From IMG/VR virus record IMGVR_UViG_3300028410_000001: DNA of 40,229 nucleotides; one strand, given 5' to 3'. Source of the DNA: a virus. Shown here one piece after another: positions 14,376 through 40,229 of the stretch (the first letter of the stretch is position 1; every line of letters begins with the position of its first letter). A program made the position numbers and the translations under genes. The notes under the pieces were generated by a model, which saw only the letters and a program-made list of their open reading frames with translations, was not told the DNA's origin and ran no database searches.

Positions 14376-14687
14376 ATGTCTCTAATTATCCCACTGAAGA
14401 CGGGTACCCGCGCGGACATCATCGCGATTGGTGTGGCGGGCACGGCTTGCCCTTCGGCCCTCTACCGCGCGACTGATCAGAAGGCGGTATGGTTCGGCGC
14501 GGAGGATGGAAGCCTGATTGGGCCCTTCATTACAGAGGCAAACGCGGGGCCTCAATTCTATGCCAGCTACGCGAACGATACCGAGGCGGGCAACAACAAC
14601 GTGCCGCTCGGTGGCATATACTTTCTTACCCTCACAAACACCTATGGCGGCATTGAGGGTACTCCGAAAAAACGAACTGAACAATAA
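14376..14687 (+). CDS. Hypothetical small tail-fibre-associated protein
   Basis: 103-aa ORF whose stop overlaps the fibre ATG (TAATGA). Confidence 0.5.
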
Positions 14688-17600
14688 TGAAGCAATTACT
14701 TTCTCTGCTCTTTCTCTGCCTTCTTTGCACCGGCGTCCGCGCCCAAAACGCTGCCCCCCTGAAGGGGACGGGCGTACTGCACTATAAGGACATCCCGACC
14801 CACGTGCCCGATACGCGATCCCCACAGGTGGTCTTCGTCGTCGATTCGCTGAAGTGGTACGTGTACGACGCTGACGCTACCGCCTGGCTCCAGCTTTCTG
14901 GTGGCGGTGGGCAAGGGATTGACGGGAAAAGCCTGCTCAATGGGCAAGGCGCACCGGCCAACAGCCTGGGCAATAATGGCGACTTCTATATTGACACTGA
15001 TGCCGACCGCATCTACGGCCCCAAGGGCGGCGGCGTGTGGGGAAACGGGACACTGATTACTGGCCCGGCCGGCCCGACTGGGCCAGCGGGCGCGGGCGTC
15101 GTGATTGTTGGAACTGTGGCCAACGCTGCCAGCCTGCCGAGCCCCTACAATGGCAACATCGGCGACATGTTCATTACAGAAGATAACGGTGGGGGCTATG
15201 TATATAATGGTAGTACCTACACTTACGTGGGTCCGATACGGGGGCCCCAGGGTGAAACGGGAGAAACAGGATTGACCGGCGGGGTCGGCCAGACGGGAAC
15301 GGCAGGAGCTGCTGCGACCGTTGCGGCGGGTACGACGACGACGGGGGCCGCTGGCACGAATGCCACCGTCACGAACGTGGGGACGCCACAAAACCGAACG
15401 CTTAATTTCGTTATCCCGCGCGGGGATACGGGGGCGACTGGTAGTACGGGTGCGACTGGTAATACAGGGGCGACCGGCCCGGCGGGTGCTGATGGTGCGA
15501 CTGGGAATACGGGGGCGGCTGGTGCTGATGGTGCGACTGGGAATACGGGGGCGACTGGTAATACTGGCCCGACCGGCGCGGCTGGTGCTGCCGCGACAGT
15601 AGCGGCAGGGACGACAACGACGGGTGCAGCGGGCACCAACGCCACCGTCACGAACGCGGGAACGCCACAAAACAGAACGCTTAATTTCGTTATTCCCAGA
15701 GGGGATACAGGGGCGACTGGTAATACAGGGGCGACTGGATCGACCGGCCCGGCGGGTGCTGATGGCCCGGCTGGTGCTGATGGTGCGACTGGGAATACGG
15801 GGGCGACTGGTAATACTGGCCCGACCGGCGCGGCTGGTGCTGCCGCGACAGTATCGGCAGGGACGACAACGACGGGTGCAGCGGGCACCAACGCCACCGT
15901 CACGAACGCGGGGACGCAGCAAAACCGAACGCTTAATTTCGTTATTCCGCGCGGGGATACGGGGGCGACGGGTAGTACGGGGGCGGCTGGTAATACAGGG
16001 GCGACCGGGGCGACCGGCCCGGCTGGTGCTGATGGCGCGGCGGGTGATGATGGCGCGACTGGCAATACTGGACCGACCGGCGCGACTGGTGCTGCGGCAA
16101 CAGTAGCGGCAGGGACGACAACGACGGGGGCCGCTGGCACTAATGCCACCGTCTCAAACGCGGGGACGCCACAAAACCAAACGTTTAATTTCGTTATTCC
16201 GCGTGGGGCGACTGGATTGACTGGCGATACGGGCCCGGCTGGTGACGATAGTACGGACGATCAGACGTTAGCTGAGGTTCTTTCGCAGGGGAACACCATG
16301 AACACAAGCTTGAATACCGATGGAAACTTCATTCAAAACGGCACCGGCCAACACGGGCTGACCATGCTAGGAAACGGCGGGATGCTTTTGCGCGGAAATG
16401 GCGTTAGCAGCATCGATGGGGTTAATTTTATAGATTTCAGATATACCGCAACGCATAAGCTCAATACGATTGGAGCTTTGCGCGGTTCCAGCAATTTTGT
16501 TTTTGCCTACGCTGTTGAGCCAAATCCCCTGGTAAATGAGCAATACATTTCAAGTGCAGATAATATCGCGTGGCCACGAACTTCTTTTGAAACAGGTGAC
16601 GCGCTAATTTGGCGCGGGCTACCCGCAACTGTCGCTGCAATGGGGTCAGTCGTTGCGTTGCCAGAATTATTCAAAGTTGAAACAGACGGACAAGCTTTCT
16701 TTCCTAGTGCGCAAGCGGCAGGAGGTGGAAGCGACGGGGTACTGTATGGTAATTCTGCTGGAAGACTTCAAAAGTATTCTAATGGAGTTCCGCAAAACCT
16801 TATCAACAGAACCAACCTTGACGCTGACCTGCTAGACGGTCAGCATGGGAGCTATTACTATTCGCCTGCTAATTTGCCCGCCACAGACGGCAACGGCATA
16901 TACTCCACCTCCGCAACCATACCAGTCGGCCGCGTTGCCTCAGCAGCCAGCCACACGGGCGGGACGGTCGGCAGGACAAAGCTGCATTTTGCCGAGGCGG
17001 GCGCATCCAGCAGCCGACACACAGGGTTTCAATCCTTTGCGCAGGCGTCCGACACAGGCGTAAAGCTGGATCATCGCGTGAACAACGTGGGCGCAACCCT
17101 TTCGTCAAGCCTTGAGTTGTCCAACCTGGTGGACAAAAGCAGCTTTTCAAATGATACCTGGTATTATAATAATGCAGCTAATACAGTACTTAGGGGATTC
17201 AGATTTGTAGGCGATAAGCCTGCGATACGGGTCGGGTCGGCTAGTTTCATTGATATGCCAGCCGCGTTGCCAACGCACGACAACAGCGCGTGGATAGTGG
17301 ACGCAAATGGATCGGGCGGTAAGTACAAACCAGTCAGCTACCGAGCGGCAAAGGATCGGGAGGTGACCCTCACAAACACAAGTTTTGCGACTGATGCTGA
17401 ATTGCAATTAAATGTGCCAGTAGGTGTTTACGACGTGCGCTGCAAGCTTATTTTTCAGGGCGAAAACACAAACAGCGAACTAATGTACCGCGTCACAGCA
17501 GCAGCAACAACAGGCAGGGTAAACGCCTATACGTCGAAGGGGGAAAGCGTGTTGACGCAAGCCTTTACTGGCAACACGTTTGGGGAACTGTACAGGACTG

Positions 17601-17764
17601 AAAATGCGGCGGGCGTTCACATGATTATTATCGAGGGAACATTACAGGTATTTGGAGCATCAACCCTTGTGGCGGTTCAGCGCGGCGTGCTAGATGCTGA
17701 CGATTCTGTCACCCTTGAGCAGGGTTCGTTTATCGAATTAACCCTTAATACCGTTGGCCTTTAA
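14687..17764 (+). CDS. Collagen-like repeat tail fibre protein
   Basis: 1025 aa with long G-X-Y runs ([37 protein letters not shown]...). Four repeats of [38 protein letters not shown], then a non-repetitive C-terminal domain. The N-terminal boundary is uncertain. Confidence 0.8.
14719..14744 (+). promoter_or_regulatory. Late-block repeat motif, copy E, lying inside the annotated 5-prime end of the fibre ORF
   Basis: CCTTCTTTGCACCGGCGTCCGCGCCC; core at 14726-14743. A 22-nt run ctttgcaccggcgtccgcgccc (14723-14744) is identical to 34761-34782. Confidence 0.55.
15308..16250 (+). repeat. Four tandem repeats of about 250-280 nt within the fibre gene
   Basis: Units start near 15308, 15587, 15839 and 16091; each opens gctgc.gcgac.gt..cggc.gg.acgac.acgacggg. 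Confidence 0.85.
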
Positions 17765-17776
17765 AATCAAAACCCT

Positions 17777-18115
17777 ATGAAGCCTGGATACCTCAATTAT
17801 GGCGAACACCCTCGCGGCGATACCATAGACGCCAAGACATTCACGCTGACCACCACCAGCGCAGGCACAACTGCGCCTATCAACCTGACCGGCGCGGACG
17901 TAAGAATGACGTTCAGCCTTTCAGGTGTAAAAGTCGCTTTCACCACAGGTGGCGGTATTACGCTGACCGATGCCGCAGCGGGTATTTTCAGGAAAGATAA
18001 GTTCTCCTTGCCCCACGTGGGGGTGTGGAGCTTCGACCTTCAGGTTATCCTGAATGGAGATACGAAAACGTACATTGTTGGACAGATTGAAATAATTAAA
18101 GACATAACCGCATGA
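17777..18115 (+). CDS. Small beta-rich fibre/baseplate-associated protein
   Basis: 112-aa ORF between the two fibre genes, overlapping the next gene by 4 nt. Confidence 0.55.
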   Translation: MKPGYLNYGEHPRGDTIDAKTFTLTTTSAGTTAPINLTGADVRMTFSLSGVKVAFTTGGGITLTDAAAGIFRKDKFSLPHVGVWSFDLQVILNGDTKTYIVGQIEIIKDITA

Positions 18116-19893
18116 GTGCTGTAAATGTAACGATACAAGAAACGATCGAGCAGGTCACAGTAGCCGTAACGGAGACGGTCGAAACTGTGACTATTGAGGT
18201 GACGACTGGTGCTGATGGTGCGACTGGTGCGACTGGTGCTGATGGCCCGGCTGGTGCTGATGGTGCTGATGGCCCGGCTGGTGCTGATGGTGCGACTGGT
18301 GCTGATGGCCCGGCTGGTGCTGATGGTGCGGCAGCGACCGTGTCGGTCGGAACCACAACGACAGGCGAAGCGGGAACGGATGCCAGCGTGACCGAAACGG
18401 GGGACGCGCAAAACAAGACGTTCGACTTTCTTATCCCGCGCGGCGCAGCGGGTGCTGCTGGCTCGGCTACAGTATCAATAGGAACAACAACGACTGGAGC
18501 TGCTGGCTCTGCTGCTAGTGTTGTTAATTCAGGGACTGGGACGGAAGCAATACTTAATTTTACATTACCAGCCGGTCAAGAAGGAAGCGTGGGCACAGAA
18601 TTGACAACTCCAGAAGTCCTGCTTAATGACATTCGTAGAGCCGATACCGATAACGCTGCTTATACTAATCTAAGTACTTTTGTTTGGATTCCAGCAACAA
18701 ACAATACCGTCGATGGGTACATTACAAAAATATCAATCGAGGCAAATAACGCTTTGGCAGGAAGGAAGATGAATTTATTCCTTTTCACACGAGATGAGGC
18801 AACTAATAACTTTACTACTCAATATATTGGAACTGACGATTTTCCAGCTGAACTTGACGGGCTTAACGAAGCTACCTTACCCACTAGAATAGCAATTAAG
18901 GAAACACAAATGTTTGGCGTTTCGCTAAGCACAACTGTTGCGTCAAGCGCAGTACGTCTGTATTCTGGAGGCGGTAGTTCGTCAGACGAGGGAGGAACTG
19001 GGCACTTTCAGAATATAACAAGGCTAACCCTATTGGTGCCGACATCAATGTTGTTTCTGTCGAACCGGGGATTCTCCGCGAAGGCTTATGTTGAAGAAGC
19101 AGTAGCTTCTTCGCGCATAAACAATCCTTCAGGGCTAAGCGTGATTGCGGCAGTCGATAGCTTAGTTGGGAGCACAGTTTTTAATGAAAGAGATTGGTTT
19201 TTTGGCAAAAAAATACTTTATGTCGGCACGTCTATTCCCGCTGGGGGCACTACCCAGGAAGGTAGATACCCTGACGTCATGGGGCGCATATTAGGGGCAG
19301 ATGTGGAGAACGTAGCAATAGGAGGCTCAAGAGTGATATTTACTAATTTAGCGAGCGACAATTTCAACGTAAATGCGTTGATGGGGACGATTGCGGAAAA
19401 AGAAGCTTTGTTTTCAGATAACTCAACAGCGGTCATTGCAAACGCGGTAGCTGCTTCGTATGAAACGCTAATAATTGGGAAGACGTATGATTACCTAGTT
19501 ATCGACCATTACGTCAATGATCGCAGTCAAATACGATTTGGTTCCATGGGAACCATATCAGACACAACAGCAGCAACTTTTTATGGAGCGTTCAACGTAC
19601 TGCTAGCATCTGTATATGCCGACAAACCGTCCGCAAAAGTGTTGTTGGTTGCCTGCCCTAACATCTACACAACTGCAAATGCGCAAATAGATCAGGCTGG
19701 ACAAGATGCAATTACAGCCCTCAAGGAAATCGCTTTAAAGTATCATTTGCCGTTTCTGAATCAGGCCGAGGAAGGGTATGTAAACACAAGCAATTTCAGC
19801 GTTTACAATTCAGATGGCACGCACCCAACAGACGACGCAGAAAGAGCAAGGCGGGGCTACGCAGTTGCTCAATTCGTTAAAAGACATCCTTAA
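18112..19893 (+). CDS. Second collagen-like tail fibre with a C-terminal SGNH/GDSL-type esterase-like domain
   Basis: [19 protein letters not shown]... G-X-Y run and a TVSVGTTTTGEAGTDASVT...FLIPRG module. The C-terminus has KKILYVGTSIPAGG (block I-like, Ser) and SDGTHPTD (block V D-x-x-H). Confidence 0.7.
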   Translation: MSAVNVTIQETIEQVTVAVTETVETVTIEVTTGADGATGATGADGPAGADGADGPAGADGATGADGPAGADGAAATVSVGTTTTGEAGTDASVTETGDAQNKTFDFLIPRGAAGAAGSATVSIGTTTTGAAGSAASVVNSGTGTEAILNFTLPAGQEGSVGTELTTPEVLLNDIRRADTDNAAYTNLSTFVWIPATNNTVDGYITKISIEANNALAGRKMNLFLFTRDEATNNFTTQYIGTDDFPAELDGLNEATLPTRIAIKETQMFGVSLSTTVASSAVRLYSGGGSSSDEGGTGHFQNITRLTLLVPTSMLFLSNRGFSAKAYVEEAVASSRINNPSGLSVIAAVDSLVGSTVFNERDWFFGKKILYVGTSIPAGGTTQEGRYPDVMGRILGADVENVAIGGSRVIFTNLASDNFNVNALMGTIAEKEALFSDNSTAVIANAVAASYETLIIGKTYDYLVIDHYVNDRSQIRFGSMGTISDTTAATFYGAFNVLLASVYADKPSAKVLLVACPNIYTTANAQIDQAGQDAITALKEIALKYHLPFLNQAEEGYVNTSNFSVYNSDGTHPTDDAERARRGYAVAQFVKRHP

Positions 19894-28246: not shown

Positions 28247-28784
28247 CCAGGCGGAGTTCAAGAAGGCCGACATGGCCGAACGAATCAGGATGTACCTGGT
28301 CGGAGGCGGTTATAAAAGTCACTTTCAGCTACGTGATAACGAAATAGAGTACCTAAGGTACATGGAAATCGCCTACACCCTCAGCCAGGAAAACAGGAGC
28401 CAGCGCGAAGCGGTGCGGCTGCTCAGGACCCAGGTGAGAACCGACCGATTTCGGGCAACGCAAGTGATGCGGGATGCCTGCAATCTGTTCGGGAGTTTCG
28501 AGGATGTACACCGCCCTACCCAGCGCGCAATGATTCGCGAAGGGCTGCTTCAGGACATTGCACAAATAGAAAAGGAACTTGAAGAAGCGGAAACGTCGAC
28601 AGAGCGCAATTCCTGGATGAAAGTCAAGCAAGGGTATTGGAAAAACCTGATGGAACTAGACCAGGTCAGCAAGCTGGAAGACGCAATCGCCAGGGATACG
28701 AAGCTGCCAGAGATTTCTTTCACCACCGACCCCTCCGCGCTCATGTCAGCAGAGGCAGAAGACATTGACCACGAAGTGATATGA
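28218..28784 (+). CDS. Hypothetical protein, possible small terminase subunit by position
   Basis: ORF directly upstream of, and overlapping, the large terminase. The start is ambiguous among 28194, 28218 and 28272. Confidence 0.4.
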   Translation: MGKLDSSVYNQAEFKKADMAERIRMYLVGGGYKSHFQLRDNEIEYLRYMEIAYTLSQENRSQREAVRLLRTQVRTDRFRATQVMRDACNLFGSFEDVHRPTQRAMIREGLLQDIAQIEKELEEAETSTERNSWMKVKQGYWKNLMELDQVSKLEDAIARDTKLPEISFTTDPSALMSAEAEDIDHEVI

Positions 28785-30241
28785 GCAAGGAAGTCTACCT
28801 GAACGAGAAGCAGATGAAATTCCTCACTGCCCCACAGAAAACGAAAGTTTTTGTGGGGGGGCGTGGCGTTGGGAAGTCTCGTGTCCTGGCCTATGGGCAG
28901 GCAGAGAAAGCGACCCTGATGCCCAGGAGCAAGGGGTTTTTGGCGTCGACGACCTACGGGCAGCTGCTGACGAAGACCTGGCCAGCCATTGCGGAAGCGT
29001 GGGAGGCCATGGGCTATGTAGAGGGGATTCATTATGTGATTGGGGTTCGCCCGCCAAAATACTTCAAGTCAGCCATCAGCCCGCCCAAACAATTTGGCAA
29101 CGTGGTGACATTTATCAATGGCCGAACCATTGACCTCATCAGTATGGACCGCCCGGAATTGGCGCGGGGTGGTAGTTACGACGATGGCGACATTGACGAG
29201 GCCGCGCTAGTGAAGCAGGATGAGTGGGCGGTCATCCTGCTACCCTCCATTCGGGGGAATAAGTGGCGATTCGGCCAGGTGAAGACGTGGCAGATGGTGG
29301 GCTTCTACACTTCCCTGCCCTGGAAAGCGGCAGGCTATTGGGTGCTAGAATACGAAGACAAGGCGAAAGCGGAGCCGGGCAAATACTTCTACCTGGAGGC
29401 CAGTGCCTACGACAATATACATGTGCTTGGTCAGGAAGGGATAGACAGGATGCGCTCAGAAATGAGCTACATCCAGTTTCAGACAGAGATTATGAACGTG
29501 CGCATCCTCAAGGTAGAAGATGCCTTCTACAATAGGTTCGATCGTGATCGACACATGTACCAGCCTGGCTACCTATATGGTCAGGACAGCACGACAGGAC
29601 GCGATGTCATTACCGCGACTACTGATGTGGACAAGAAGCAGTTCCTTGAGATCAGCCTCGATTTTGGTGGCTGGATTTCCTGCATGTGTGTGTTTCAGGA
29701 GAAGCCCAACAGGGAGGAGTGGATGGTGGACAGTTACTTCGTGAAGGGAGACAACAAGATATCTGAGCTGGTGGCCCGGTTCTGCGAGACCTATAAGGAG
29801 CATAAGTACAAGCACGTACGTATGTGGGGCGAGCCACGAGGCCACGACCGCAACGCCACGAGTGGCACGATATACCAGCAGCTGGTGACGCTCTTCGCCG
29901 CCCAAGGCTGGAGGGCAGATGTACATGCACCAGCCAAGCAAAGCGCACAGCACATTGAGCGTCAGCACTTCATGAGTGCAATACTAGCCGAGGAGACCAG
30001 GGGCTACCCTACCCTGCGCATGAACGCTGAGACCTGCAACGACGTCAGGATAGCACTTCAGACCGCGCAGTCGATGGCAGATGGCAAGAAAGACAAGCGT
30101 AATGAGAAGGTCCGAGAGTTCCCCCAGGAACACGCGACGCACTTTACTGACGTGGTCGACTACTACTTCGAGCAGAAGTGGGGCAAGCGAGTGACGACAG
30201 GCAGCGACGCCGGCCGGGCGAGCGAGGCCATGTTCGGGTAG
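28781..30241 (+). CDS. terL: Terminase large subunit
   Basis: 486 aa with an N-terminal Walker A-like VFVGGRGVGKS and a Walker B-like DDGDIDEAALV; size and layout are typical of TerL. Confidence 0.8.
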   Translation: MSKEVYLNEKQMKFLTAPQKTKVFVGGRGVGKSRVLAYGQAEKATLMPRSKGFLASTTYGQLLTKTWPAIAEAWEAMGYVEGIHYVIGVRPPKYFKSAISPPKQFGNVVTFINGRTIDLISMDRPELARGGSYDDGDIDEAALVKQDEWAVILLPSIRGNKWRFGQVKTWQMVGFYTSLPWKAAGYWVLEYEDKAKAEPGKYFYLEASAYDNIHVLGQEGIDRMRSEMSYIQFQTEIMNVRILKVEDAFYNRFDRDRHMYQPGYLYGQDSTTGRDVITATTDVDKKQFLEISLDFGGWISCMCVFQEKPNREEWMVDSYFVKGDNKISELVARFCETYKEHKYKHVRMWGEPRGHDRNATSGTIYQQLVTLFAAQGWRADVHAPAKQSAQHIERQHFMSAILAEETRGYPTLRMNAETCNDVRIALQTAQSMADGKKDKRNEKVREFPQEHATHFTDVVDYYFEQKWGKRVTTGSDAGRASEAMFG

Positions 30242-30424
30242 CTCGCTGAGTGGAATAGCCAGCGGTGGGAGCCGCTGGCATATAATACCGAATTTTGTGT
30301 TGCGTGGATCACGCAAACGCTAATCCGCGCCCTACGGGGGGGGAGAAGGTCAAGGCAAACAGAAGTTAATTTTGACCCCCAATTGGTTAAGAATCAGTAC
30401 CTTTAAAAATCAAAGTAATACAAT

Positions 30425-31471
30425 ATGCAAAGCTTATTCAGCAACCAAATCAACATCGAATTAAAGGAAACGAACTTCCTTGAGTTCCTGCCATCTGCCC
30501 ATCGCAGCATGGCATGGTCGAGCATGAGACCCTACGAAACGCCCGCGATGCGCGAGTATCTGGCCCCCTACCTGGGGGAAGCGTTCATGGCCGAGATCGT
30601 GACCTACGCCAACCTGCCGGATTCCGATCAGGATGTAGCCATTTTGAGCAGTTGCTTGAATCGCGTGAGATTAGCCCTCGCCTACTACATGGGCTACAAT
30701 TTTACAGTAGACCAGAACGTGCAGCTTTCCGACCTTGGCCCACAGACGCAGAGCGCAAGCGAAGGCGGCAGCAGCCAGCCCAGTCAGTGGGCCTTCAAAA
30801 ACAAGGTATGGAACCTGATTAGTAAAGCAGACCAGTACACCGACCAGCTACTTAATTTTCTGGAAGGTAGGGCGCGGGCGCAGGATGCAAGCTTTGCGAC
30901 GTGGAGCAATGATGAGCTACGCCGTCGCCAAACCTCTGCCTTTTTCACCAGCACAACGGAAGTCGACAACTACCTGAACATCGAAGGAAACCTTCGTGCC
31001 TGGAACAACATGGTGCCCAGCTTCCGAACGGCAGAATGGCGACACGTACTACCAGTGCTGGGATCAGCTTTCAACACAGAGCTAGTCGGGATGTATAAAA
31101 CTGGCGCCAACATTACCCCGACCCACCAGACGGTAATTGTGCTGGTGCAGCGGGTGGTCGCTCATTACGGCTTACTGCTGGCCATACCGAATCTCAGCTG
31201 CGTCATTCAGGGAAACGGCATCGTAATGGTGAGCCAGATGGATGGCTTTGACGAGCGAGTGAGCAGCAGTTTGACGACTGAACAAACTGCCATTACTCGA
31301 CTTCAGCAAAGCCACGAAGGCCTTGGCCGCATTGCCCTGGCCGAGCTGCGAAACTACATTATTCGCAACGCTGACAATCTACCCACCTACAAAAACAGCC
31401 CCGCCTTCATCTCCGCCCCCGATCCCGTTTTGCCGATCGGAGATAAAGATGGTGGTGCCATTTTCTTATAA
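30425..31471 (+). CDS. Hypothetical head-associated protein
   Basis: 348-aa ORF after the terminase. Confidence 0.55.
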   Translation: MQSLFSNQINIELKETNFLEFLPSAHRSMAWSSMRPYETPAMREYLAPYLGEAFMAEIVTYANLPDSDQDVAILSSCLNRVRLALAYYMGYNFTVDQNVQLSDLGPQTQSASEGGSSQPSQWAFKNKVWNLISKADQYTDQLLNFLEGRARAQDASFATWSNDELRRRQTSAFFTSTTEVDNYLNIEGNLRAWNNMVPSFRTAEWRHVLPVLGSAFNTELVGMYKTGANITPTHQTVIVLVQRVVAHYGLLLAIPNLSCVIQGNGIVMVSQMDGFDERVSSSLTTEQTAITRLQQSHEGLGRIALAELRNYIIRNADNLPTYKNSPAFISAPDPVLPIGDKDGGAIFL

Positions 31472-31772: not shown

Positions 31773-31805
31773 AATCTAGTGTTTTGAATGTGAAGTGTGT
31801 GTTTG

Positions 31806-31839
31806 TCCGGTCAGCTTATGTTGGCCGGATTTTCTTTTT
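31806..31839 (+). terminator. Rho-independent terminator closing the late block
   Basis: 8-bp stem tccggtca / tggccgga (one G-U pair), 8-nt loop, then ttttcttttt. Confidence 0.65.
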
Positions 31840-31873: not shown

Positions 31874-31940
31874 GCTGACCCTTTGACCCTAGTTGACCCT
31901 AATACGAGGCCATTTGACACAAGTTGACACAAGTTGACCC
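31874..31940 (+). repeat. Cluster of six phased TTGAC(C/A)C repeats (candidate attP arm sites / iterons)
   Basis: TGAC cores begin at 31876, 31884, 31894, 31915, 31925 and 31935, giving spacings of 8, 10, 21, 10 and 10. Confidence 0.75.
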
Positions 31941-32055
31941 AATTGAATTTTTGCAACAGTATGATTTTCAGCAGATTACAAACGTTAGTGTCAAAAGTTC
32001 ACGAAACGCCTTAATATACAAGTACATAGAGAATAATGTTTGAAAAGATAGACAT

Positions 32056-33108
32056 TTAAAAAGTGGGATAATCCTCCGCTAAAGAGCCCATGTCCTTCCA
32101 TCCAATGCGGCTCAAATAGATGCTGGTAGTCTCTAAATTAGCGTGCCTATTCTGCTTCTGAATGTAGAGCAAACTGACCTTCTTATCTGCTAGTAAATAG
32201 TTGGCGGTGTTCTTCCATCCATACAGCTTGAACTCTAATCCGAAACCCAAGTGATTAAGGTGTTCACGGTACCTCCCGGCCAGGGTGTTGACACCAATTG
32301 GCTTCTTCTTATCTCGTCCGGGGAAAAGGAAATCACCTGGCTGTTTTTGCGAGAGATACTCGGCCAGCTCCTCGCGAAAGGTGACAGGGATGACGACATA
32401 ATCATCCTCTCCATTCTTCGAGATGTGAGAGGGGACATGTACGCGCCATTCGTCGAGCTCGAAGTGCATCACCTTCATCAAGCGTAGTTCTGAGCCTGGC
32501 CGCAGTAGTAGGTAGAAAACACACTGGCAGGCAAAAAGCAATTCGGGGTCGTGCTCTGAAAGGTGTTGATAGATGGCTCGACGATGCGAGGTCTGATACC
32601 TGCGATTGGTGAGTGCCTTGTGCTTGAGGCGAGGGATGTGGCTGAAGAACTCATCGTCGGTGATGGCTGCAAAGATTTGCTTAAGGTATCGAAGGTAATC
32701 ATTACGCGTTCCTCTGGCGACGTGGTCTTCCAGGTGCTCGAAGTAATCAGTCACCAGGTCGGTACTCATCTCTCGTTTTCCTTTCCACTTCAGGAATAGG
32801 CGAAGTTTGGAGCAGTAGCACAGGTAGCTCTTTTTGCGCCACGTTTTTTTCTTCTGCGCGATCCAATCCCAAGCGCGAGCTTCGATAGGCTTCTTCGCCA
32901 CGTAAGTTTCGATGAAGGCCAGCATTGACCGCTCGGCGAGCTTCACCCTGCCTTCGTAGGTTTTGGGGTCGGATAGGCCAGTGTAGATACGCTGCCGCCT
33001 TCCTTCCTCATCGTAGTACTGGAGATAGGGCTTTAGGCCAAGGTTCCGGGAGACATGTATCTTAATACGCGATGGTCCGTTTGGGGCAAGTTTTTTTTCT
33101 GCTGACAT
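32056..33108 (-). CDS. int: Tyrosine recombinase / phage integrase
   Basis: 350 aa. Contains YLLLRPGSELRLMKV (box I Arg) and C-terminal RHANLETTSIYLSRI (His...Tyr catalytic motif). The N-terminal arm-binding-like segment is RIKIHVSRNLGLKPYLQYYDEEGRRQRIYTGL. Confidence 0.85.
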   Translation of the reverse strand: MSAEKKLAPNGPSRIKIHVSRNLGLKPYLQYYDEEGRRQRIYTGLSDPKTYEGRVKLAERSMLAFIETYVAKKPIEARAWDWIAQKKKTWRKKSYLCYCSKLRLFLKWKGKREMSTDLVTDYFEHLEDHVARGTRNDYLRYLKQIFAAITDDEFFSHIPRLKHKALTNRRYQTSHRRAIYQHLSEHDPELLFACQCVFYLLLRPGSELRLMKVMHFELDEWRVHVPSHISKNGEDDYVVIPVTFREELAEYLSQKQPGDFLFPGRDKKKPIGVNTLAGRYREHLNHLGFGLEFKLYGWKNTANYLLADKKVSLLYIQKQNRHANLETTSIYLSRIGWKDMGSLAEDYPTF

Positions 33109-33170
33109 GATTAAGTGTTCAGCAGTCCCTCACGTGTGCGCGCGCGGATCGAATGAAGAAAGAGGTGCCT

Positions 33171-33316
33171 GGCGATGCGTCGCCAAACGAAAACCGCCCT
33201 ACCCCTAGTAGATACTAGGAGTAAGGCGGAAGGTGGAGAATATCGGAATCTACCCCACCCCCCAAAACCTAAGCAAACACTACCTCCCAACAAACCCAAT
33301 TTGGCGATCGCCAAAT
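33171..33316. promoter_or_regulatory. Palindrome-rich region upstream of int
   Basis: ggcgatgcgtcgcc (33171-33184); imperfect 17-bp-arm hairpin (33194-33229); perfect 18-bp palindrome atttggcgatcgccaaat (33299-33316). Confidence 0.5.
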
Positions 33317-33445
33317 AAATAAGGCGACGGCGCATAGGGCCAAAAGTTCTCGATACGGCCAGGTACATACTCATCAACAACTATTTATAGTGAAATAGAA
33401 AAACAATAAACAAAGAACCAAACAACACTCAAATAACCTGATACT

Positions 33446-33628
33446 TTGACCCTAATAGATAGAATCACTTAAAGTATCAAAGTACCAGAGATAGGTAAAT
33501 AGCTGATTCTTAATTACTTACTTACTATATACTAAGGGGGGGGTGGTCAATCCAATTGGGTCAAATAGGGTCAAACACCCCCCCTACTTGGGTCAAACAC
33601 CCCCCATATTAGGGTCAACTAGGGTCAA
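33446..33628. repeat. Second cluster of the same repeat, mostly inverted (GGGTCAA)
   Basis: ttgaccctaata at 33446-33457 is identical to 31893-31904. GGGTCAA begins at 33558, 33568, 33590, 33612 and 33622 (spacings 10, 22, 22, 10), with GGTGGTCAA at 33542. Confidence 0.75.
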
Positions 33629-33698: not shown

Positions 33699-34123
33699 TC
33701 ACTTATCGAGGATTTCCAGCAGCTCAGATAATTGGTTCCCCAGTACCCCCCCAGCCTCTTTTGCGGCTGGCGACCGCAACAACGCGACCACCTGTTGACG
33801 CAGCTGCTCCACCTTCGCTTCCTGTTCCTCTACGGTGCCATGTAGGAGCGACTTCTCCCTGACTGATCGCTCCAGCTCCTTCACTACCCCCTCTTCGCTC
33901 GGCGGCCGGGTTTCTCCCTTCCACATGTCTTGCCCTACTATGTCGCCCACGTAGACGCCGAAAAGGTCAGCGTATTCCTGGATAACAGAGGCTGGCGGCG
34001 TTGCTTTCCCCTTCTCGTAATCAATGATGGAACTGGAAGTCTTGCCTAATCTCTCCGCAACGAAAGATTTCGACCATTTTTTTTCTCTCGTAAATGCTTG
34101 AGGTTCTGATGAATACGATTCAT
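33699..34123 (-). CDS. XRE/cI-type HTH repressor with its reading frame interrupted at an A8 tract
   Basis: ATG at 34123 reads MNRIHQNLKHLREKK and then goes out of frame at 34077-34084. The downstream frame reads KKWSKSFVAERLGKTSSSIIDYEKGKATPPASVIQEYADLFGVYVGDIV, a classic XRE HTH, continuous with track ORF 33699-33950. Confidence 0.6.
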
Positions 34124-34158
34124 GTGTAGTTATTATCTGGATTATTATAGTTTTAAAC

Positions 34159-34329: not shown

Positions 34330-34752
34330 ATGTACAATCTCATCACGCTCATCGGCCACCTTGGCCAGGCACCTGAAACAAAAAAGATCTCCATGGGGAG
34401 TTCGGTAACAAGGCTTTCCCTTGCGACCAGCATAAGCTGGAAGAACGCTGAGGGCGTAAAGTCAGAGAAAACAGAGTGGCACAGCATCGTGCTGTGGAAC
34501 AAGCTGGGCCAAGTGGCTCAGGACTACCTGGAAAAGGGTAGCAAAGTCCTAATCGTAGGTCGGGTAGAATACCGGAAGGTTGAGAACAACGGGGAAACTC
34601 GCTATTACACTGATGTAATCGCATCGGAAATGAGGCTACTCAGCACTAAGTCCACCCCTACCAACAGCTCCCCTGAAAATAACCTCCCCAAAGGCCAACC
34701 TAAGTCACTAACCGCCTTGCGGCCAGACGACAAAGAAGACCTGCCTTTCTAA
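34330..34752 (+). CDS. ssb: Single-stranded DNA-binding protein
   Basis: OB-fold signature NLITLIGHLGQAPE...TEWHSIVLWNKLGQVAQDYLEKGSKVLIVGRVEYRKVE..GETRYYTDVIA, followed by a disordered tail ending in the acidic tip DKEDLPF. Confidence 0.9.
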   Translation: MYNLITLIGHLGQAPETKKISMGSSVTRLSLATSISWKNAEGVKSEKTEWHSIVLWNKLGQVAQDYLEKGSKVLIVGRVEYRKVENNGETRYYTDVIASEMRLLSTKSTPTNSSPENNLPKGQPKSLTALRPDDKEDLPF

Positions 34753-36078: not shown

Positions 36079-37578
36079 ATGTCACAAGACCCCTTTCTTC
36101 AGCTAGTCGAAGCAGAAATGGCGCAAGCTATGAGCCTCCTGAACGGAGGGGCTGCTATCCGGGAGCGCATCGCGAAGCTAGACCTGCGCAAGATCGCTTT
36201 CCCGCTTCATTGTCTTCCACTCGGTGTTGCCGAGTTTGTGCGGGCCTACATGGAAACCTTCAATAGCCCAGCAGATCACTATGGCCTGGCAATAATGTGT
36301 GCTGCGGGAGCCGCCGTGGGCAACGCTGCACGAATCAATGACCGGGGAACTATGCACCCGGCGGTGCTCAATGCTGTATTTGTCGACGTGCCCGGCAGCG
36401 GGAAAACGCCCACGATCGGAACGGTATTGAAGCCCTTCGTGAAAATCGAAGGTGAGCACCAGCGCGACTACGACCGCGCAATCCACGAGTATAAGCAGGA
36501 GCAAAAGCAGAAGAAAAAAAACGATGATGAGGGTGACGACGAACCACCCTGCCCTGCGGAACTTCTTGTCGGCGATTTTACCCTTGAGTCGCTTATCGAT
36601 GTGCTAGAGCACAATACCCGTGGGGTGCTCGCGTGGGCTGACGAGATAGAGGGATTTATCTCGGCCATGGATAAGTACCGCACGGGCAAAGGTGGCGACG
36701 ATAAGTTTTGGCTTTCGGCCTACACCGGCGAGCCCTACAAAACAAACCGCAGAAACCGCAGCCGACCGGTCTACATACCCCGGGTTTTCTGCCCTTTTAT
36801 GGGCGGCATCCAGCCGGGCTTAATTACTGTCTTCTCTGACGATAAGCGAGATAGTAGCGGGTTCCTTTCCCGCCTGTTGTTCACGAAACCCGCCTTGGCG
36901 AAAAAGCAGCATTACCACAATCAGCGTCCGCACGACAAGCATGCAGCGCACTGGGAGTACTGCGTTCGCCGGCTTTTGGCCGTTCCACCTCGCGAGACCA
37001 TCAGCGACTTTTCAGGCAAGCAATTAGTGACGCCACACGAGATTGAGATGTCGGACGACGCAAGGCAGATTTACGCCGCTTTCGTCAATGGAATCGCCGA
37101 CCGGATTAATGAGCTCGACGAGCTGGACATCACGACCAGATCTACCCTGGTGAAGTTCGAGACGCACCTGTTGCGCTTCGCCCTAATCCTTCACTACCTC
37201 GACTGGGCCAGCACTCCCCCACCCGCACCGATTGAATCGGACAATGAATTTGCCGATCTCCTGGCAGAAGGATACGTTCGCGAAAGCGACATCAGCAAAC
37301 AAAAGATTACTGGCGATGCCATGAAGCGCGCCACCGAAATAGCCGAATACTTCATGGCTACTGGCCTGGAAGTCGTCGGCAAGCTGAAAGACTACGTGAA
37401 TACACTCCCGCCGACGTACCAGGTGTGGTACGAAGAACTGCCCGAGGAGGGCATAACAACCAAGCTTGCGGTGACGCTCGGAGAAGAAGCGACCTTCAGC
37501 TCCAGCACCGTCAAGCGGATGCTTAAAGACCAAAAGCTTTTCAAGAAAGTAGGCCGTGGAGTCTACGAGAAAATTTAA
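36079..37578 (+). CDS. DUF3987-like replication ATPase (YfjI/primase-associated helicase-like)
   Basis: ATG 36079 (MSQDPFLQLVEAEM...). Walker A is VDVPGSGKTPT. LLVGDFTLESLIDVLEHNTRGVLAWADEIEGFISAMDKYR...KFWLSAYTGEPY is typical of DUF3987 proteins. Confidence 0.65.
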   Translation: MSQDPFLQLVEAEMAQAMSLLNGGAAIRERIAKLDLRKIAFPLHCLPLGVAEFVRAYMETFNSPADHYGLAIMCAAGAAVGNAARINDRGTMHPAVLNAVFVDVPGSGKTPTIGTVLKPFVKIEGEHQRDYDRAIHEYKQEQKQKKKNDDEGDDEPPCPAELLVGDFTLESLIDVLEHNTRGVLAWADEIEGFISAMDKYRTGKGGDDKFWLSAYTGEPYKTNRRNRSRPVYIPRVFCPFMGGIQPGLITVFSDDKRDSSGFLSRLLFTKPALAKKQHYHNQRPHDKHAAHWEYCVRRLLAVPPRETISDFSGKQLVTPHEIEMSDDARQIYAAFVNGIADRINELDELDITTRSTLVKFETHLLRFALILHYLDWASTPPPAPIESDNEFADLLAEGYVRESDISKQKITGDAMKRATEIAEYFMATGLEVVGKLKDYVNTLPPTYQVWYEELPEEGITTKLAVTLGEEATFSSSTVKRMLKDQKLFKKVGRGVYEKI

Positions 37579-40010: not shown

Positions 40011-40102
40011 CTATAAAAATAAGGCAAACAACCACGTCAGCAAAGGCGTGTAACAACCTTAACCCTTGCCAGTACCTTACACAAATAAGCCTTTTTTAGC
40101 GT

Positions 40103-40229
40103 ACACATCCCAGGACGAATTAGACAATTAAAAAAAGATCAAAATGGATAACAAATGCGGCGTGTGCATGGAGCCTACGCAAAATGAGGGCCTTTGTGCT
40201 CTTTGCCAAATAGCTAAGCGTCGTACATG
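40103..40229. repeat. Terminal direct repeat, copy 2 (circular-assembly overlap; truncates a second copy of ORF 42-287)
   Basis: Exact 127-nt match to 1-127. Confidence 0.95.

Follow-up and report, generated by a model that had tools for sequence, protein, structure and literature searches.

The window analysed here, a 40,229-nt stretch of viral DNA from the IMG/VR record IMGVR_UViG_3300028410_000001 whose coordinates are used throughout, contains two inverted clusters of phased TTGACCC-type heptamers that bracket int, the gene for a tyrosine integrase (Int). The first 127-128 nt of the window are repeated at 40102-40229, and the contig is therefore circularly closed and represents a complete phage genome of about 40.1 kb, that of an uncultured temperate Bacteroidota phage. 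Nearly all genes lie on the plus strand, the exceptions being int and a helix-turn-helix (HTH) repressor gene (33699 to about 34125). The window contains no tRNA gene, an Rfam search of 31.7-34.3 kb gave matches at chance level only, a DNA search of the phage GenBank collection gave no match, and Pfam and PHROGs annotated nothing besides the helicase among the early proteins and a candidate small terminase (TerS). For comparison, related contigs (labelled L plus a number) were fetched via Int homology and later via the helicase; close Int homologues are few, and IMG/VR scans with Int, helicase and DUF6712 alignments likewise found few relatives. All 13 close-relative contigs are collinear with the window and the second orientation was not seen, which rules out an invertible int segment between the inverted repeats. 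The features discussed below are collected in the table.

Table. Features of the window at and around the integrase locus.
Feature	Position	Strand	Remarks
Left (int-distal) array, six heptamers	31875-31940	+	CTGACCC, TTGACCC x3, TTGACAC x2
AT-rich spacer of left unit	31941-31987		Within 31941-32060, one of the genome's two most AT-rich 120-nt windows
Lone inverted heptamer TTGACAC closing left unit	31988-31994	-	Relatives also have an inverted site across the AT-rich spacer
int, tyrosine integrase, 350 aa	32056-33108	-	Pfam PF00589; N-terminal beta-beta-beta-alpha domain (lambda-Int-like layout); AlphaFold2 model, predicted local distance difference test score 80
Palindrome O2, TTGGCGAC-GCAT-CGCCA on - strand	33170-33186		About 50 bp from the core, towards int
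Intrinsic-terminator hairpin	33194-33229	-	Directly after the tRNA-like 3' end; structure kept, sequence variable in relatives
Core of the phage attachment site (attP), GATTCCGATATTCTCCACC	33232-33250	-	T-arm and acceptor 3' end of tRNA-Ala(GGC)
Palindrome O1, TTGGCGATCGCCAA	33301-33314		About 50 bp from the core, away from int
Lone heptamer TTGACCC of right unit	33446-33452	+	Opposite to the right array, across the AT-rich stretch
AT-rich, AGTA-repeat stretch of right unit	33453-33541		Candidate DNA-unwinding element (DUE); architecture common to 10 phages
Right array, five TTGACCC plus variant TGACCA (33543-33549)	33543-33628	-
HTH (XRE-type) repressor gene	33699-34125	-	Out of frame at T8 run 34077-34084; end about 70 nt from right array
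TerL	28781-30241		Weak match
DUF6712	30425-31471
Terminator-like hairpin closing the late operon (94-aa gene)	31805-31830	+	Just beyond the left array
SSB	34330-34752
DUF3987 helicase (superfamily 6 (SF6)/MCM-related) with C-terminal winged-helix motif	36082-37578	+	Pfam 1.4e-48; PHROG DNA helicase; C-terminal alignment; candidate heptamer reader

The two clusters belong to units with a common layout, namely an array, then an AT-rich spacer, and then a single site in the opposite orientation. In the left array, CTGACCC at 31875 is followed by TTGACCC at 31883 and 31893, TTGACAC at 31914 and 31924, and TTGACCC at 31934 (spacings 8, 10, 21, 10 and 10). The TTGACCC sites of the right array lie at 33558, 33568, 33590, 33612 and 33622 (spacings 10, 22, 22 and 10), and its 22-nt repeat unit contains a C/G run. 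TTGACCCTAATA at 33446-33457, which includes the lone site of the right unit, is identical to 31893-31904; outside the units, TTGACCCCCAATTGG is located at 30372 and a further heptamer site lies within int at 32288. All repeats, coordinates and spacings listed in an earlier note made from the letters alone, together with the inverted placement of the clusters around int, were confirmed; the repeats are moreover over-represented and conserved in relatives. Exact TTGACCC occurs 14 times against 5.1 expected, a count reached in none of 100 shuffles, and one 150-nt window holds five copies, the maximum over 20 shuffles being 3-4. The left and right arrays are collinear inverted copies of each other (27 nt at 93%, 26 nt at 85%) and are the only non-coding iteron clusters in the genome. 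Each adjoins one of the two most AT-rich 120-nt stretches genome-wide, 33361-33520 and 31941-32060 (71.7% AT). Neither this AT-rich setting nor the sites at 31988-31994 and 32288 had been listed in the earlier note.

A second short motif, the palindrome CAATTG, is found beside the heptamers: four of its nine genomic copies directly abut one (30372-30385, 31934-31945, 32288-32300 and 33553-33564), and the gapped form TTGACMC(0-2)CAATTG was observed twice against 0.01 expected. In both arrays the composite site is among those closest to the AT-rich spacer, and its isolated copies, in the TerL/DUF6712 intergenic region and inside int, are unconserved in relatives.

Arrays are present at both positions in at least eight diverged relatives with Int identities of 30-54%, each lineage having its own heptamer. 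In L004, L005, L096, L098, L099, L100 and L173 (43-54% Int identity), an array is found wherever the contig reaches, one between the repressor gene and int and the other 40-180 nt past the int stop codon; the latter position is also occupied in the L023/L014 pair (30% Int identity). The heptamer is TTGACCC in the window and L096, TTGGCAA(C) in L004, L005, L100 and L173, TGTCCAC in L098, TTGACAA in L099 and TTGACA[CG] in L023/L014. Alignment of the right-hand units reveals a common architecture and a G-N-CA core conserved in 10 phages, including two that lack int, L188 and L190, and an inverted lone site equivalent to that at 33446 is found in L004, L005, L098, L100, L173, L188 and L190. The two arrays are mutually inverted in the window, L096 and L023, and direct in L004, L005, L098, L099, L100 and L173. 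Comparable arrays were not seen in more distant relatives (L105-L107, L122 and L185) or in other integrated elements (L006-L025). Several relatives also carry a small conserved open reading frame (ORF) of 43-58 aa with the motif RLY..M....L..E[IV]R[LF]FAA..L..YL between the right unit and the attP core (L004 4658-4789, L005 4661-4837, L098 approximately 560-700); the window and L096 carry a different sequence there.

The attachment site was located by comparison with integrase genes in bacterial genomes. Among 80 genomic int homologues, all from Bacteroidota and 21-34% identical, 59 are preceded, at a distance of 100-900 nt and on the same strand, by a tRNA or tmRNA gene. These include several tRNA-Ala(GGC) genes with the 3' end ...TCCGATATTCTCCAC, and the minus strand of the window carries TCCGATATTCTCCAC. 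The segment 33232-33250 corresponds to a tRNA 3' end, near int and on the same strand: it matches the tRNA-Ala(GGC) of L051 (9545-9619) exactly over 15 nt, ATTCTCCAC is common to other tRNA genes, and the acceptor strand ATTCTCC at the core implies a G3:U70 pair. In other relatives, a tmRNA-type 3' end occupies the equivalent place. A terminator after the tRNA 3' end, as found here, is what a phage supplies when it rebuilds the tRNA 3' end on integration. In L014, a Lewinella metagenome-assembled genome (MAG), the last 17 nt of a tmRNA (Rfam, 116 bits, 1687-2065) open 2.5 kb of sequence sharing 96% identity with the free phage L023, where the corresponding 15-17 nt sit between the upstream array and int. 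The two thus constitute a natural attP/attL pair, which proves, for these relatives, the layout with the core between the upstream array and int.

Because of the tRNA-Ala identity, the tRNA/tmRNA layout of the 59 homologues and the L023/L014 pair, we place the attP core of the window shortly upstream of int, at 33232-33250. The right unit is 196-378 bp away from this core and the left array about 1.3 kb. With a length of about 150 bp, the attP is compact, comprising the tRNA-Ala(GGC) 3' end, the terminator and the two flanking palindromes, and the arrays are not part of it. The geometry, which the earlier note had called unusual for an attP, is indeed so, with the arrays lying outside the compact site. 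Its proposal of an attP in the left array with the core in the 31901-31914 gap is refuted by the tRNA-Ala match, the L023/L014 junction and the retention of heptamers in phages lacking int; the core falls within 33171-33316, the very interval where, according to the same note, prophage junctions would speak against that proposal. The search for an integrated prophage that it had called for gave an attL junction at tmRNA for the L023/L014 pair and no integrated copy of this phage, for which an exact-protein look-up and a metagenome pattern scan returned free forms only.

The palindromes O1 and O2 are candidates for the true arm-type sites or for int-regulatory sites. They move with the int/core module and not with the heptamers, as L100 has palindromes of the L096 type although its arrays are of the L173 type. 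At certain positions of the Int N-domain (beta1 H/N-V, beta3 R-[ILMV]-Y-x-G-L), the five phages that have TGGCGA half-sites agree, whereas L098, L099 and L173, which have other palindromes, deviate. In L023, the inverted pair AGAAGTAGGG and CCCTACTTCT flanks the core in place of O1/O2. The integration module (O1, core, O2 and int) is exchanged between phage backbones (L096, L100 and L173), and one backbone family uses either tRNA-Ala(GGC) or tmRNA as the bacterial attachment site (attB); the core-binding and catalytic part of Int clusters by attB type. Among tRNA-Ala(GGC) genes, that of a Sphingobacteriales MAG (L051) matches the core best, and MAGs of Saprospiraceae and Lewinella hold the closest genomic Int homologues, a hint as to the host group.

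The heptamers could also be regarded as distal arm-type sites of a very large split attP, in which the N-domain of Int would bind heptamers on both sides and bridge to the core. Lambda Int structures (1z1b, 1z1g and 5j0n) align with the model of the 350-residue Int over 343-371 columns, and Int, as modelled, looks heterobivalent; its lambda-like N-terminal beta-sheet domain implies that arm sites are expected somewhere. The arrays do flank the core (200-380 bp away on one side and 1.3 kb away, beyond int, on the other), the 10-bp phasing of neighbouring sites resembles that of lambda P'1-3, and the left unit is seen in int-carrying phages only. However, the heptamers track neither Int nor its N-domain, as overall Int N-domain identity does not correlate with heptamer family. 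The window and L096 share TTGACCC, with helicases 76%, TerL 83% and Ints 45-57% identical. L096 and L100, the closest Int pair (72% identical in the core-binding and catalytic part, 56% in the other part), have different heptamers, TTGACCC versus TGGCAAC; the repressor side of L100 is L173-like, and the L173 heptamer is that of L100. The exchanged unit comprises O1, core, terminator, O2 and int, and the arrays on both sides stay behind. These comparisons indicate that the heptamer family is inherited with the phage backbone, not with Int. Two properties of lambda-type arm sites, co-inheritance with the cognate Int and presence only together with int and attP, were accordingly not found. In addition, the mutual orientation of the arrays flips among relatives, the array-to-core distance ranges from 220 to 530 bp, and O1 and O2, which lie beside the core and travel with int, are better arm-site candidates. 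It is very unlikely that the heptamers are Int arm sites, because the heptamer tracks the backbone, other elements with related Ints lack such arrays, and the right unit persists in two phages without int, L188 and L190, of which the former is a deletion derivative; the split attP in particular appears highly improbable.

L188 and L190 were found through their helicases and carry no int at this position. L188 has five copies of TCGCCAT with spacings of 10, 21, 21 and 21 and C-run spacers, an adjoining stretch of 70-74% AT and inverted copies beyond it; L190 has five copies of CTTGCCA in the same layout. Within 1418-1486 and 1890-1958, L188 retains remnants of the Int C-terminus (20-23 aa, E 0.001-0.007) and the repressor N-terminus (23 aa, E 6e-5), and it is therefore a natural deletion derivative of a temperate phage, without int, attP and repressor. 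Since L188 dropped its lysogeny genes but kept the right-type unit, this unit serves lytic growth. The left unit is missing in L190 and in the ancestor of L188, in which the int 3' end abuts a late gene.

The same relatives bear on a regulatory function. A role of the heptamers as operators of the repressor was rejected: they are absent from the divergent repressor/early promoter region, the recognition helix of the repressor is nearly the same across phages with different heptamers, and the array persists in the repressor-less L188. The looping operators for the repressor that the earlier note had considered are unlikely for the same reasons. Another early phage regulator, for example a small early protein, might instead bind the arrays and, by roadblock or looping, insulate the minus-strand repressor gene and int from the plus-strand operons that converge on them. 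Each array occupies a site of convergent transcription at gene 3' ends, several small early proteins without known function are conserved with the backbone, and the left array is present only where int is. L188, though lacking both repressor and int, nevertheless keeps a perfect five-site array with its AT-rich element, and iterons spaced 21-22 bp apart beside such an element are atypical of operators. We consider a regulator of this kind improbable.

On balance, we lean towards reading the arrays as origin-type iterons and the right unit as a replication origin, because the phased iterons adjoin an AT-rich element with an inverted iteron across it, matching the origins of self-loading helicases. 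Arrays of 5-6 sites with spacings of 10 and 21-22, and hence at least three phased short direct repeats, occur in 10 phages, and the adjoining AT-rich element with oppositely oriented iterons on its two sides is also found in relatives. Iteron plasmids similarly have phased direct repeats of about 22 bp adjoining an AT-rich unwinding element (PMC4980987). In staphylococcal pathogenicity islands (SaPIs), the MCM-like, self-loading Rep binds 5-6-nt iterons, 6-12 per origin, through its C-terminal winged helix; the origins have an AT-rich centre with iterons pointing opposite ways on its two sides, and iteron specificity differs between close relatives (PMC9371898). An origin was mentioned in passing in the earlier note and, given the phased iterons, the AT-rich element and the retention of the unit in int-less phages, is the best supported of the options raised there.

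The likely reader of the heptamers is the replicative helicase. DUF3987 proteins are SF6/MCM-related replicative helicases with a C-terminal winged HTH (wHTH) (PMC4889955), and helicase activity has been demonstrated for a DUF3987 protein of a Bacteroidota element (PMC11724360). The DUF3987 protein of the window has a wHTH-like motif at its C-terminus, and the putative recognition helix of this motif varies from one heptamer family to another. The pair L188/L190 is informative here: the C-terminal parts of their helicases are 85% identical, their iterons are one base apart, and two substitutions lie in the putative recognition helix. This covariation of helix and heptamer is consistent with the helicase as reader. 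No other candidate initiator was recognised among the phage proteins with Pfam and PHROGs, and DnaA boxes were rejected as a general explanation, only the L098 heptamer resembling one. We infer that the heptamer units are bound by a backbone-encoded protein, most likely the C-terminal winged helix of the DUF3987 helicase.

Several observations weigh against this assignment. The covariation between helicase and heptamer comprises only seven helicases and is confounded by phylogeny. The right unit is 2.5 kb from the helicase gene, whereas the SaPI unit adjoins rep. Cumulative GC skew, which is unreliable in small phages, gives no usable origin signal; near 33 kb it peaks locally instead of reaching a minimum. 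An origin does not account for the purpose of the left unit, which is found only in int-carrying phages. Finally, the anatomy, short repeats around an AT-rich spacer near the end of the terminase operon, also fits a packaging (pac) site. In that case, the units would be pac- or cosB-like recognition sites, with TerS binding the phased heptamers and the cut made in or near the AT-rich spacer, as in P1 pac. The units come directly after the operon whose last genes are TerL, DUF6712 and the 94-aa gene, short phased repeats around a spacer resemble P1 pac and SPP1 pacL/pacR, the unit is kept in lytic deletion derivatives, and the heptamer tracks the backbone. However, no TerS was identified by Pfam or PHROGs, pac is usually in or beside terS, from which the units here would be separated by more than 3 kb, two units with variable mutual orientation are odd for a packaging start, and partial contigs show no accumulation of ends at the units. 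A packaging function therefore seems unlikely to us.

Under the origin reading, the C-terminal winged helix of the helicase would bind the iterons, and the helicase would load at the AT-rich element as SaPI Rep does. The right unit (33446-33628) would be the ancestral, lysis-essential element and the left unit (31875-31994) a second, auxiliary iteron cluster, found only in some temperate members. As the left unit is confined to int-carrying phages, a link to lysogeny is possible. Its free orientation suggests an auxiliary or control role, and this orientation-independence, together with its absence from L190 and the ancestor of L188, recalls P4 crr or the control iterons of plasmids.

The units lie on either side of attP-int and would therefore be just inside both prophage ends after integration (attL-int-left unit ... 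right unit-attR). It is conceivable, though we regard it as improbable, that they are deliberately placed: the initiator-helicase bound to both might pair the prophage ends and couple the onset of replication to excision, or it might fire in situ replication from both ends before excision. Such firing before excision takes place in escape replication and lateral transduction. If true, an origin-binding helicase would be linked to site-specific recombination in a way not described before, and with iteron units at both prophage ends a coupling of replication and excision is directly testable.

No mapped origin for phages with DUF3987 helicases came up in the literature examined, and the right unit is a new candidate origin for this group; the arrangement of two iteron/AT-rich units bracketing a compact attP-int module is likewise new. 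Phased short repeats beside an integrase gene, then, need not be arm-type sites. In this family, a compact tRNA-Ala attP could be told apart from origin-like iterons by comparing genomes, the key evidence being module swaps, deletion derivatives without int, and a natural attP/attL pair, and the family offers iteron and winged-helix variants for specificity tests by swapping.

Two further observations concern genes elsewhere in the window. The reading frame of the repressor gene is broken at a run of eight T (A8 in the coding strand) at 34077-34084, four other assemblies being 100% identical there, and the repressors of relatives are intact (142-153 aa). The break is either a real frameshift, of a lytic, clear-plaque-type variant abundant in the samples, or a sign of slippage-dependent expression. 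Long in-frame tandem repeats lie at 15426-16243 and 18198-18332, within the large ORFs 14687-17764 and 18112-19893; they have a 252-nt period, with 18/27/36-nt sub-repeats rich in GGT/GCT/GAT, and probably encode Gly-rich repeats of the tail-fibre type. A partial contig of one relative appears to break at this region.

Compared with known systems, the locus shares with a lambda-type attP a heterobivalent-looking Int and short, non-palindromic repeats, phased at 10 bp, to either side of a core. It differs in that the repeats are not co-inherited with Int, persist without int, lie up to 1.3 kb from the core and flip in relative orientation. Like SaPI origins, the units have short (5-7 nt) iterons around an AT-rich centre, oriented oppositely on its two sides. 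Unlike in SaPIs, the helicase is a DUF3987 protein of a Bacteroidota phage whose binding here is proposed from its wHTH-like motif, the unit lies 2.5 kb from the helicase gene and not directly downstream, the main array has a period of 21-22 bp with a G/C run, and two units flank int and attP. Phage P4 has octamer iterons in two clusters kilobases apart (ori and crr), present in direct and inverted orientation, to which the alpha primase-helicase binds through its C-terminal domain, and its second cluster, crr, acts at a distance. Two iteron clusters kilobases apart, with direct and inverted copies, are present here as well, yet the helicase belongs to another family, it is int and attP that lie between the clusters, and the second cluster is missing from int-less relatives. 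In the incC-repA-incA region of plasmid P1, two iteron clusters are separated by a gene; the phased direct repeats of about 22 bp by an AT-rich DUE and a second cluster across a gene are thus shared with iteron plasmids (P1, F and RK2), although the gene enclosed here encodes an integrase, not an initiator, and there is no RepA-type initiator. In P1 pac, hexamer clusters flank the cleavage region; here, too, repeat clusters lie on both sides of a spacer, but there are two units, the spacer is AT-rich and DUE-like, and terminase binding is only putative. Overall, in their repeat layout the units resemble origins of the SaPI/P4 type, a resemblance that we do not extend to a claim of membership.

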